Positions 49,806 through 61,253 are shown, numbered from the stretch's first letter. The stretch: 64,000 bases of DNA from Escherichia coli (GCF_003334815.1 NZ_QOWO01000005.1); one strand, 5' to 3'. Program-made: numbers and translations. Notes: generated by a model from the letters alone, not told the origin.

Positions 49806-50012
49806 TACTTATTGCCGGATGCGGCGTGAACGCCTTATCCGCCCTACGCGGTTCTGGCACATTTTGCAGGCCTGATAAGACGCGGCAAGCGTCGCATCAG
49901 GCATCGGAGCACTTATTGCCGGATGCGGCGTGAACGCCTTATCCGGCCTACGGTTCTGGCACCTTTTGTAGGCCTGATAAGACGCGGCAAGCGTCGCATC
50001 AGGCATGATGCG
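49806..50012. repeat. BIME cluster: about 106-bp unit (two opposed REPs) present twice in tandem between convergent araJ and mak
   Basis: cttattgccggatgcggcgtgaacgccttatccg..ctggcac..ttt.gcaggcctgataagacgcggcaagcgtcgcatcaggcat repeated with few mismatches starting at about 49806 and 49912. Confidence 0.85.
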
Positions 50013-57919: not shown

Positions 57920-59335
57920 TTATTTCAGCCCCAGAGCGGCTTTCATGGTGTAGAAGAGATCGGTCTGGTCGGTCAGTCCAACAACATTGGCGGCATGCGG
58001 GCCATACGCCGCAATACGCAACTGACTGCCGGTATGTTCTTGTGAATCCTCTTCGGAGTTCCCGTAACTCATCACCATCACTGCGCCATCTTTGGTATTT
58101 AGCGCCTGGGTGAGGCCCGGAGCTTTGGTATCCGGCGCAACAATCTGGCTGGCGTGGGCGTGATCAGCGGTGACTATGACCAGCGTGTTACCCTCCTTTT
58201 TAGCGAATTCCAGCGCCCGTTGTACGGCTTCATCGAGATCGACCGTCTCGCCAATTTGCCCACAAGGATTCGCAGCATGATCCTGTTTATCGATTGACGC
58301 ACCTTCAACTTGCAGGAAAAAGCCTTTCTCATTTTTACTCAACAATTCAATGGCTTTGTCGGTCATCTGCGCCAGGGTTGGTACACTGTCATTACGTTGC
58401 GGATTTGGCGTACAGGTGACTGCGGGCTTATCGATATTGCCATGGTACGTTGCTTTCGGTCCTAGCCAGCGCACTGGCATATTGCCGTCAGCAAACAGGC
58501 CAAGCAGGGGTTTTTGCTGATTCGCTTCCGTCACCGAATTCAGTGAGGCAGCATCGCTCACCAACTGATAACCACGCGCCTGTGCCTGTTCACGCAGCGT
58601 TTTTCCCTGCCATTCACCAGCGGTTGCCGTTTCAGCAAAGGTTTTTGCGCCGCCGCCAAGCGTAACGTCGGCACGAGCGTTAAGCAGCTGTTCGGTAATC
58701 GATCCTTTTCCGCCTTTTTCCAGAGCGTTACCCGGACATTTTTCACTGGTCGCGCTCGGACCGTAGCATTTGCGCGAGGTCACATGTGCCACCAGCGCAG
58801 CGGGCGTGGCATCCTGCAACTCTGCGGTAGAAACGTTACCGGTCGCCAGACCTGCGGCTTTTGCCATTTCCAGAATCGTTGGGTGATCTTTTTCGTGAAT
58901 ATCGACGCCCAGCGCGCCGTTATAGGTTTTGACACCGGTTGACCAGGCGGTTGCTGATGCAGCCGAGTCGGTGACGTAGTCCGGTTTGCCGGTTTTTTTA
59001 TTCAGCGCATAGTGAGTGTATTGCCCGGTAAGCGGTAAGGCATCTATACCTTTAAAAAAGCCGCCCGCACCTTCGGCATAATTACGTGCGGCAGTAATTT
59101 CCGAGTCCCCCATCCCATCGCCAATCAGCAAAATAATATTTTTTGCAGGTTTATCGCTAAGAGAATCACGCAGAGCGGCAGTCTGATCACCCGTTAAACG
59201 GCGAGCACCGCCGGGTGCAGTAATATCGCCCTGAGCAGCCCGGTTTTCCAGAACAGGCATTTCTGGTGTCCGGGCTTTTGTCACAGGGGTAAACAGTAAC
59301 GGTAAGAGTGCCAGTGCAATAGTGCTTTGTTTCAC
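57920..59335 (-). CDS. phoA: Alkaline phosphatase
   Basis: Track ORF to 59404; conserved start (M)[20 protein letters not shown] is GTG at 59335 (471 aa); active-site DSAASATAW. Confidence 0.97.
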
Positions 59336-59397
59336 TTTATTTTCTCCATGTACAAATACATTAAAAAATAAAAACAAAGCGACTATAAGTCTCGGCC

Positions 59398-59415
59398 GTG
59401 ACAACTTTATGACAG
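59398..59415 (-). promoter_or_regulatory. Pho box of the phoA promoter
   Basis: Minus strand CTGTCATAAAGTTGTCAC, about 60-80 bp upstream of the phoA start. Confidence 0.9.
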
Positions 59416-59435
59416 CTGTTGAAAAGATTAACTTT

Positions 59436-59696
59436 TTACTGACGAGGATGCTTCAATAACTTCTTTACGTAATCGCGCAGCAGCTCCGTATCGTCGTCAG
59501 GAATGCTGGCATCGGGCTTTACCTCGTACAGCGCCCCCTCTACCTGATCAATCAACCGCTGTTGGTCATTTTGCGCCATATTGCGAAGCATTGCAGTGAC
59601 GATAATCTCCAAAGCTTCTACCTGCGCACACAGTTCTTTCGACTCTTCTTCTTTTTGGGCAAGCTTAAATAACAACTCAGCAATGAGATTTTTCAT
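59436..59696 (-). CDS. iraP: IraP anti-adaptor protein (stabilises RpoS during phosphate starvation)
   Basis: 86-aa [36 protein letters not shown]. Confidence 0.93.
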
Positions 59697-60158
59697 GTCT
59701 GTATTTCCTTATCCAAAGTATGGAGAAGTTAACATTATGTTTCACAACTTCATAGTGTCTGGAAGTATTATTTTTATGACAAAGGAAATACTTTGCGCAA
59801 ATATTTTTTGTTTGATTACCAGCGAAACGTTTCTCTTATTTAAATAATTACCCACACAAAATATAGGCTTTTAATTATCAACCTTTATTATAAATAAAAG
59901 TTATGAAATATATTCTCTTCGTTAACTTATAATTAAGAGAAAAAAACTCACCGCATGGCCATTTAAGCCAGGAATAAATTAGCTTCCCGTTCATCATTTT
60001 TGTGATCTTGCGCACATCTTTGAGATAACGCACTTTCTTCACCAGTACGTTGCACGCTTTGTCAGCAGAAGATTGCAACAATCTTTCAGAAGGCCGCGAA
60101 TCCCCCGTTTTGTCGTGGTAATGTATGCACTTTGTGTTAGACGGGATAGGTTTTTAAG

Positions 60159-61253
60159 ATGGAAAAACTGCGGGTAGGAATCGTTTTTGGTGGTAAATCA
60201 GCGGAACATGAAGTGTCTCTGCAATCGGCAAAAAACATTGTCGATGCCATTGATAAAAGTCGCTTCGACGTTGTGCTGCTGGGCATTGATAAACAAGGGC
60301 AATGGCACGTCAGCGATGCCAGCAATTATCTGCTAAATGCAGACGATCCTGCCCATATTGCGTTGCGCCCTTCGGCGACCAGCCTTGCGCAGGTGCCAGG
60401 TAAACATGAGCATCAGCTTATCGACGCGCAAAACGGTCAGCCGTTGCCGACGGTGGATGTCATTTTCCCGATTGTCCACGGTACGCTGGGCGAAGATGGT
60501 TCCTTGCAGGGAATGCTGCGGGTCGCCAATTTACCGTTTGTAGGTTCTGATGTTCTGGCTTCAGCAGCCTGTATGGACAAAGATGTCACCAAACGTCTGC
60601 TACGCGATGCCGGGCTGAACATTGCGCCATTTATTACCCTGACGCGCGCCAATCGTCACAACATTAGTTTTGCCGAAGTGGAGTCTAAACTGGGGTTACC
60701 ACTGTTTGTAAAACCGGCTAATCAGGGCTCTTCTGTTGGTGTCAGCAAAGTAACCAGTGAAGAACAGTACGCAATTGCCGTCGATCTGGCGTTCGAGTTC
60801 GATCATAAAGTGATCGTTGAGCAAGGGATCAAAGGTCGTGAGATCGAATGCGCAGTTCTGGGCAACGACAATCCGCAAGCCAGCACCTGTGGAGAGATCG
60901 TACTCACCAGCGATTTCTATGCCTACGACACCAAGTACATTGACGAAGATGGCGCGAAAGTGGTAGTTCCGGCAGCCATTGCGCCAGAAATCAACGATAA
61001 GATCCGGGCGATTGCCGTTCAGGCTTATCAAACGTTGGGATGCGCAGGCATGGCGCGTGTAGACGTGTTTTTAACCCCAGAGAACGAAGTGGTGATCAAC
61101 GAGATCAACACCCTGCCTGGCTTCACTAATATCAGTATGTATCCGAAGCTGTGGCAAGCCAGCGGTCTGGGTTACACCGATCTGATCACACGTTTGATTG
61201 AACTGGCGCTGGAGCGTCACGCTGCGGATAACGCATTGAAAACCACAATGTAA
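60159..61253 (+). CDS. ddlA: D-alanine--D-alanine ligase A
   Basis: 364-aa [34 protein letters not shown]; ATP-grasp fold. Confidence 0.97.

Follow-up and report, generated by a model that had tools for sequence, protein, structure and literature searches.

RpoS is the general stress sigma factor, and IraP is one of the anti-adaptors that set its stability, with ppGpp as the input known in Escherichia coli. We analyzed the spacer between iraP and the divergent gene ddlA in a stretch of E. coli DNA of 64,000 nucleotides (GCF_003334815.1, NZ_QOWO01000005.1), referred to below as the window, and compared it with the closest described systems. The nearest of these is the iraP promoter region of Salmonella enterica, a PhoP-activated region of "architecture IV" (Tu, 2006; Zwir, 2012). 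It has the same Shine-Dalgarno sequence, proximal extended -10 element and distal ATAAAAATA motif as the E. coli region, an RbsR-like palindrome at an equal distance from the iraP ATG, and the CATAAC...ATTAT AT-rich block. It differs in having kept, further upstream, an MFS transporter gene and an extensin-like gene, and in possessing two PhoP boxes, a PhoP-dependent start and a 218-nt leader, whereas E. coli has no PhoP boxes and carries a deletion junction and an orphan CRP/FNR promoter in their place.

Two other types of system are relevant to this orphan promoter. In class II CRP/FNR promoters, the regulator site lies near -41.5. The E. coli element resembles them in its TGTGA-N6-TCACA-type site, its high affinity for CRP and a -10-like hexamer at class II distance, and the orthologous element of other genera precedes a transporter gene; unlike them, it has no downstream gene and no detected start, the nearest real starts being 121-245 bp away. 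The second type comprises relic promoters left by gene loss, where a promoter and its transcription-factor site outlive the deleted gene. The same is seen here, but the E. coli relic has changed less than its flanks and shows occupancy in vivo.

We conclude, with a probability of roughly three in four, that the spacer is a composite divergent regulatory region in a lineage, Escherichia, that lost an MdtG-like MFS gene and an extensin-like gene. As a divergent promoter region it belongs to an ordinary and known kind of feature, and the iraP promoters, the CRP site and the FNR peak are already present in the literature. What is new is the interpretation of the CRP/FNR site as an orphan promoter that has been kept, a conserved RbsR-type operator with a possible link to RpoS, and the case for a spurious open reading frame (ORF) call by the Prokaryotic Genome Annotation Pipeline (PGAP). 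We infer the two functions proposed here, control of iraP by RbsR and co-option of the CRP/FNR site.

In the proposed arrangement, iraP is expressed from two sigma70 promoters, whose starts (59763 and 59719) come from published mapping data. A palindrome resembling the rbsD operator, ~65 bp upstream of the distal one, would be bound by RbsR or a close LacI-family relative that modulates iraP, most likely by activation; as IraP inhibits RssB, this would connect RbsR directly with RpoS levels. Beyond the palindrome come an AT-rich block derived from the ancestral MFS-iraP spacer, then a decayed deletion junction, and then what the lost transporter gene left behind, a CRP/FNR-type site with a core promoter; these face iraP and may have been co-opted as a distal input to iraP and/or ddlA. 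An extended -10 promoter for ddlA would lie within the 82 bp adjoining that gene, and the annotated ORF is an accidental frame running across non-coding elements.

Genes between iraP and ddlA

We compared the ddlA neighbourhoods of 80 species, together with two Salmonella loci (L084, S. enterica; L085, S. bongori). Of the 80 species loci, 64 have an MFS transporter gene between iraP and ddlA, in the same orientation as iraP. The protein, of 398 residues, is MdtG-like, although its score of 546.5 bits is below the cut-off of the MdtG model (571). About half of the 64 MFS-bearing loci also contain a gene for an Extensin-like_C protein between the MFS gene and ddlA, and both genes are present in Salmonella. 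E. coli, E. albertii and a third Escherichia (L074) have neither.

What remains in E. coli can be aligned piece by piece with the intact loci. Conservation across genera that BLAST recognizes is limited to two blocks of the spacer, 59701-~59845 on the iraP side and 60077-60158 on the ddlA side. The second block is found directly upstream of ddlA in many genera and corresponds to the entire 77-bp spacer between ddlA and the extensin-like gene of Salmonella. Next to it, at ~60065-60077, the minus-strand sequence GCAATCTTCTGC matches in the alignment the sequence just 3' of the extensin-like stop codon in other genera. On the other side, the AT-rich block (59865-59935) aligns with the spacer 3' of the MFS gene in Salmonella, Citrobacter and Citrobacter sp. 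R56, and is 82-90% conserved within Escherichia. In Salmonella, the counterpart of this block forms part of the 218-nt leader with which the PhoP-dependent iraP transcript begins. Between these landmarks, the presumed deletion junction (59936-59971) stands where the 5' untranslated region, the ORF and the terminator of the MFS gene would be, as well as, in Salmonella, the PhoP-box promoter; a run of seven A (59941-59947) sits inside it. No coding remnant of either gene was found, as tblastn searches against the spacer gave nothing above noise and no ORF fragment was detectable.

The loss of two genes would explain the unusual size and composition of the spacer. At 462 bp (59697-60158), it is the largest intergenic gap of the window in the MG1655 annotation, narrowly ahead of cyoA-ampG (459 bp) and followed by phoR-brnQ (406 bp), and it is found in 5423 of 5426 complete E. 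coli genomes. Its GC content is 34.2%, compared with 51.6% for the whole window, and is equalled or undercut in only 17 of 6354 sliding windows of 462 bp. The lowest 151-bp stretch of the window (21.9% GC) is 59800-59950, which contains the A/T string ttattataaataaaagttatgaaatatattctc at 59886-59918. The iraP-side part (59697-59960) has 28% GC and the ddlA-side part (59961-60158) 42%. A preliminary description of this DNA had portrayed the spacer as the largest gap of the window, strongly AT-rich, with that A/T string and with a more GC-balanced segment next to ddlA, and the measurements agree with it on every one of these points.

The block adjoining ddlA probably holds the ddlA promoter, as the same description expected. 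Across genera, an extended -10 element (TGnTAnnnT, 60116-60124) has been preserved, and a sigma70 peak in chromatin immunoprecipitation sequencing (ChIP-seq) lies at ~60090; the start itself is predicted. This peak is 2.8-fold higher anaerobically (1136, versus 408), and ddlA may be oxygen- or FNR-responsive.

The MFS gene is also missing in four loci outside Escherichia (L010, L058, L063 and L064), which belong to Citrobacter sp. R56 (L010), Klebsiella sp. BIGb0407 and two uncultured Enterobacteriaceae. Because the junction in R56 differs and retains ~125 bp more sequence, repeated independent loss of the MFS gene is suggested. Salmonella, for its part, has no phoA between iraP and psiF yet retains both genes that are missing from E. 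coli, the extensin-like and the MFS gene, so that the two lineages appear to have made opposite deletions around iraP. In the window, phoA is on the minus strand, like iraP, and ddlA is on the plus strand.

Positions in this text are those of the window, which is colinear with the reverse complement of E. coli K-12 MG1655 397082-461070 at 99.96% identity (14 mismatches and 11 gap positions over 64 kb). Published coordinates were converted as window x = 460306 - U00096.2 y, a relation verified with the position of a FITBAR site and the centre of a Footprint-seq site. The features discussed are collected in Table 1.

Table 1. Annotated and proposed features in and around the iraP-ddlA spacer (window positions).
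Feature	Position	Strand	Remarks
iraP	59436-59696	-	annotation
iraP Shine-Dalgarno sequence (AAGGA)	59706-59710	-	9 nt before the ATG at 59696
Proximal iraP promoter	59719-59734	-	extended -10 TGTTAACTT (59734-59726); start A 59719; 23-nt leader
Distal iraP promoter	59763-59800	-	-35-like TTGCGC 59800-59795; -10 TAAAAAT 59776-59770; start 59763; 67-nt leader
RbsR-operator-like palindrome ccagcgaaacgtttctctta	59819-59838, centre 59828.5		17/20 match to the rbsD operator
FITBAR-predicted NagC site (aataattacccacacaaaatata)	59843-59865		published computational prediction, U00096.2 400463
AT-rich block (CATAAC...ATTAT...GTGATTATT)	59865-59935		inherited from the ancestral MFS-iraP spacer
ORF67, PGAP "hypothetical protein" (WP_001300163.1)	59878-60081	-	67 codons, TTG start; call read as spurious
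Deletion junction, fast-evolving filler	59936-59971		no homology outside Escherichia; 42% identical in E. albertii
Relic core promoter of the lost MdtG-like MFS gene	59972-60000	-	AAAATGATGAACGGGAAGC and -10-like TAATTT 59981-59976; predicted start ~59969
CRP/FNR-family site TGTGATCTTGCGCACA	60001-60016, centre 60008.5		one mismatch to TGTGA-N6-TCACA
Poorly conserved filler	60017-60076		60% identical in E. albertii
ddlA promoter and leader	60077-60158	+	extended -10: TG 60116-60117, TAATGT 60119-60124; predicted start ~60130
ddlA	60159-61253	+	annotation

The CRP/FNR-type site and the relic promoter

The sequence TGTGATCTTGCGCACA is the sole site of the spacer with two or fewer mismatches to TGTGA-N6-TCACA. 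Together with the sequence that follows it on the minus strand, from 60016 to 59975 (TGTGCGCAAGATCACAAAAATGATGAACGGGAAGCTAATTT; Salmonella counterpart TGTGACATGTTTCACAAAAATGATGAACGGGGAGACAAAAT), it is the homologue of the promoter that precedes the MFS gene elsewhere, and the core of this element aligns with the MFS-gene promoter of Salmonella, Citrobacter, Enterobacter, Leclercia and Kluyvera. In other genera, a CRP-type site is located ~129 bp upstream of the MFS ATG and accompanies the MFS gene, not ddlA. Since the site travels with the MFS gene when the extensin-like gene intervenes, the E. coli site can be understood as the orphan of the lost gene.

The element has changed far less than its surroundings. 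Within Escherichia, the relic core is 93-97% conserved and the site plus core 91-97%, compared with 42-60% for the flanks. Between E. coli and E. albertii there are 4 differences in the 45-bp relic and 45 in the adjoining 96 bp, which argues for purifying selection after the loss of the gene. Nine bases of the half-sites are invariant within Escherichia, variation being confined to the spacer between them and to the outermost right base (position 12, in strain N56), and the -10-like hexamer retains A2 and T6 in all three Escherichia species.

The site is also bound. In Footprint-seq, CRP binds it in vitro with a dissociation constant of 1.2 nM, and it was reported as a "novel" high-affinity site assigned to ddlA/iraP. 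An FNR ChIP-seq summit was placed at U00096.2 400,328, which is window 59978, with iraP classed as directly FNR-repressed and with the remark "TSS [transcription start site] not in peak region" (Myers et al., 2013). A second FNR summit, from a ChIP-seq/ChIP-chip set, falls at window 59962. An orphan site accounts for both of these published oddities, a "novel" CRP site without an obvious target and an FNR peak without a start, and makes the locus a clean case of a promoter outliving its gene, apparently held by selection. Because the relic is better conserved than its flanks and occupied in vivo, reuse is suggested rather than plain decay; and because the site is under purifying selection in Escherichia, we infer that it has been co-opted as a distal input to iraP and/or ddlA.

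The strongest competitor of this reading, which we consider a serious possibility though the less probable one, is that the site and its relic promoter are a decaying leftover without function, bound by CRP and FNR only incidentally, with control exerted from the proximal promoters alone. The -10 has indeed drifted from GATAAAAT to GCTAATTT, and the distances of the site from the distal iraP start (245 bp) and from the ddlA start as predicted (~121 bp) are not canonical ones. The remark of Myers et al. (2013) on the position of their peak points in the same direction, as do the mapped starts. The portion of the Cappable-seq start table available here covers the plus strand of MG1655, which is the minus strand of the window, in cells cultured in minimal medium with glucose. 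Within this portion no start is listed at the relic promoter (~59969), in a medium where CRP is weakly active, nor any minus-strand start between 59763 and 61417, and hence no active start with the site near -41.5, as a class II promoter would have. Decay does not readily explain the contrast of 4 against 45 differences, the preservation of high-affinity CRP binding, or the effect of fnr on iraP expression.

Some of these findings, such as the silent relic promoter, also count against the co-option that we favour, and others join them. The FNR summits are 30-46 bp off the CRP/FNR site. FNR could act instead from a second motif, TTGATTACCAGCGA (59812-59825). With 2 mismatches, it is the spacer's best match to the FNR consensus, and it stands at about -55 relative to the distal iraP start; Myers et al. 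(2013) counted a second FNR motif, which may correspond to it. Moreover, the ddlA start near 60130, from which one of the distances is measured, is a position predicted from the sequence. A literature search for CRP-dependent iraP expression gave nothing usable.

The relic promoter could also still fire when cAMP is high or under anaerobic conditions, producing a small RNA or an iraP transcript with a long leader. Its geometry is class II-like, with the centre of the site 27.5 nt from the hexamer that keeps A2 and T6 in the three Escherichia species, and in Salmonella the iraP transcript with the 218-nt leader arises from a far-upstream promoter in the homologous spacer. This is nevertheless quite improbable: no start appears in minimal medium in the table just described, no terminator was found in a scan of the spacer, no conserved sequence or small ORF lies directly downstream, and a scan of 59200-60500 against Rfam (E<=10) returned only chance matches to microRNAs and long non-coding RNAs. 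The suggestion in the preliminary description that the spacer might harbour an unannotated small transcript therefore finds no support on the iraP strand in minimal medium. Two small frames 3' of the relic promoter (MAMR* and a 13-codon frame with a TTG start) were considered and set aside, as they are not conserved in L074 or E. albertii.

The iraP promoters and an operator-like palindrome

The available Cappable-seq data place two main starts upstream of iraP, at 59763 (U00096.2 400543, score 297.7) and 59719 (U00096.2 400587, score 167.6), and a minor minus-strand start at 59745. A sigma70 ChIP-seq peak is present at ~59722 (685, with a slight fall to 573 anaerobically). The expectation that the spacer carries the iraP promoter is thus borne out, with two promoters rather than one. 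The sequence TAAGGAAAT upstream of iraP is invariant or nearly so in all genera aligned, and the alignment shows conservation across genera of both the proximal motif, TGnTAAC(t/g)T, and the distal motif, cATAA(A/G)AATAATAC. The hexamers listed for the distal promoter are putative assignments. Its start is preceded by a conserved ATAAAAATAATAC element and an AT-rich discriminator, a layout that fits the activation by ppGpp that iraP reportedly undergoes. RNA folding of the 67-nt and 23-nt leaders was unremarkable (z-scores of -1.4 and -0.8). A scan for consensus promoters and terminators was uninformative: it gave 3 promoter-like sites, where 2.5 are expected, and no terminator.

Upstream of the distal start, we found a palindrome (59819-59838) that closely resembles the rbsD operator of MG1655 (tcagcgaaacgtttcgctga). 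Its centre is 132.5 bp away from the iraP ATG and, relative to the distal start, at -65.5. The two are identical at 17 of 20 positions, 14 of them contiguous (CAGCGAAACGTTTC), and at 16 of 18 over the 18-mer; the central CG and the palindromic layout are kept, and the left half is perfect. They differ in the right half, which reads TCTCTT at iraP and TCGCTG at rbsD. With three or fewer mismatches to the 18-mer, the palindrome is alone within the 64-kb window, and we calculated that so close a match is expected by chance only ~0.1-0.2 times per genome. It is also conserved in place. The exact 11-mer GCGAAACGTTT occurs 117-134 bp upstream of the iraP ATG in 23 of the 63 iraP-bearing species loci and nowhere else in their 410 kb; when up to four mismatches are allowed, the palindrome is found in 31 of the 63, and in Salmonella too. 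Within Escherichia it is 95-100% conserved. The rbsD operator ends ~11 bp before the start codon, consistent with repression, whereas a position ~65 bp upstream of the start site is more typical of activation or modulation. On the basis of these sequence comparisons, we propose that the palindrome is a site for RbsR or a close LacI-family relative that would modulate iraP, most likely by activating it.

Work in Salmonella gives this proposal a physiological context. Transposon screens for growth on succinate (2024) hit both iraP and rbsR. In the delta-rbsR mutant, which is Succ+ like delta-iraP, RpoS protein is reduced in exponential and early stationary phase while rpoS transcription is unchanged, and the authors proposed an indirect post-transcriptional or post-translational route from rbsR to RpoS, without naming it. 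Since IraP blocks RssB and thereby stabilizes RpoS, an RbsR site at iraP would provide a direct route. If the palindrome is a working RbsR site, sugar sensing would be linked directly to RpoS proteolysis, and the low RpoS and succinate growth common to the Salmonella rbsR and iraP mutants would have a mechanism. The complete version of this proposal, in which RbsR binds at 59819-59838 and directly activates iraP, ribose availability sets RpoS stability through a chain in which RbsR promotes IraP and IraP inhibits RssB, which acts on RpoS, and the orphan CRP/FNR promoter is retained in parallel as a carbon and oxygen input, is put forward only tentatively.

Several points weigh against it. In the Citrobacter freundii group, Leclercia, Buttiauxella and Cedecea, the palindrome has degenerated or is lacking altogether. 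The Salmonella authors offered another explanation, that over-expression of rbsD lowers RpoS. Finally, the Salmonella phenotype requires activation, whereas LacI-family proteins usually repress, although activation of add and udk by RbsR has been reported.

The degenerate right half of the palindrome, which also tells against the proposal, leaves room for a further alternative, namely that the site belongs to another LacI-family regulator (Cra, PurR or a GalR-type protein) or to an unrelated factor. LacI-family operators have a AAACGTTT core in common, and the FNR-like motif at 59812-59825 overlaps the flank of the palindrome. We consider this alternative rather doubtful. In the left half of the palindrome, all 9 positions agree with the rbsD operator (CAGCGAAAC), and among them are positions -5 to -7, at which the consensus sequences of PurR (GCAAAC) and Cra (CTGAAAC) diverge from it. 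The 16-mer agrees with the rbsD operator at 15 of 16 positions, compared with 10 of 16 for the Cra consensus, and the Salmonella rbsR phenotype fits RbsR.

Upstream of purH, add and udk, which are published secondary targets of RbsR, the best matches have 7-8 mismatches to the 18-mer, compared with 2 for the palindrome; because this is background level, they provide no calibration for weak sites. Genomic SELEX with RbsR reportedly gave 5 peaks. In MG1655, a weaker operator-like sequence with 6 mismatches, ATGTAAAACGTTTCGAGG, is present ~80 bp upstream of the main rbsD operator (locus L083, 441-458).

The AT-rich block and the 67-codon reading frame

The preliminary description saw in the A/T tracts curved promoter DNA of the type bound by H-NS, and the tract could on this view be H-NS-silenced and possibly foreign. 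Its GC content of 22-28% would suit such a tract, and so would the presence of an IS1 insertion in one strain. FNR ChIP occupancy of the spacer, moreover, rises significantly from 0.44 in the wild type to 0.96 in a delta-hns delta-stpA strain, which is indirect support for H-NS-type binding. Curvature, however, finds no backing: the periodicity of AA/TT at 10-11 bp is within the distribution of shuffled sequences, and the A-tracts are not helically phased. The homology of the block with the Salmonella and Citrobacter spacers indicates that it is ancestral and not foreign, and both iraP starts are strong in minimal medium in the Cappable-seq data available, which argues that the region is not silenced. 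We therefore regard a silenced, curved or foreign tract as unlikely and retain from this view only the indirect sign of H-NS-type binding. H-NS reportedly acts on iraD and iraM rather than on iraP.

E. coli Ec-U7 carries an IS1A element within the AT-rich tract (~59916/59917; locus L088, 2289-2986), which cuts the iraP promoters off from ddlA and the CRP/FNR site; in this strain, PGAP calls the 67-codon ORF described below in a shortened form. The NagC site predicted by FITBAR, on the edge of the AT-rich block, was rejected as probably non-functional because it is poorly conserved, with 63% identity in E. albertii.

The spacer had been described as having no assigned feature, which does not hold, as PGAP calls a "hypothetical protein" at 59878-60081, here named ORF67, for the majority of E. 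coli genomes in RefSeq; the curated MG1655 record lacks it. The further statement that this ORF looks non-coding is well supported. For N56 and LR-58-2, PGAP itself attaches the label "frameshifted" or "internal stop", owing to an A7/A6 polymorphism at 59941-59947, and the frame is broken in L074 and E. albertii. It overlaps the relic promoter together with the CRP site, both of which other genera conserve at the DNA level, and the minimal-medium Cappable-seq starts include none upstream of it on the minus strand. That ORF67 encodes a real protein of 67 residues is very improbable. The many PGAP calls and a protein cluster with 677 sequence variants could be taken as signs of a genuine gene, but the cluster is composed only of E. 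coli and Shigella "hypothetical proteins", with no homologues beyond them, and an NCBIfam search gave no family match. To this are added the TTG start, the overlap with regulatory elements and the disrupted frames in other lineages. WP_001300163.1 and its variants thus look like an annotation artefact. The TTG (60079-60081) aligns with the ATG of the Salmonella extensin-like gene (L084, 1117-1119), and ORF67 begins at the relic of a real start.

Elsewhere in the window, secondary BLAST hits revealed two adjoining repeat copies of ~100 bp, ~95% alike, in the mak-araJ spacer (49807-49904 and 49911-50006; MG1655 411076-411275).

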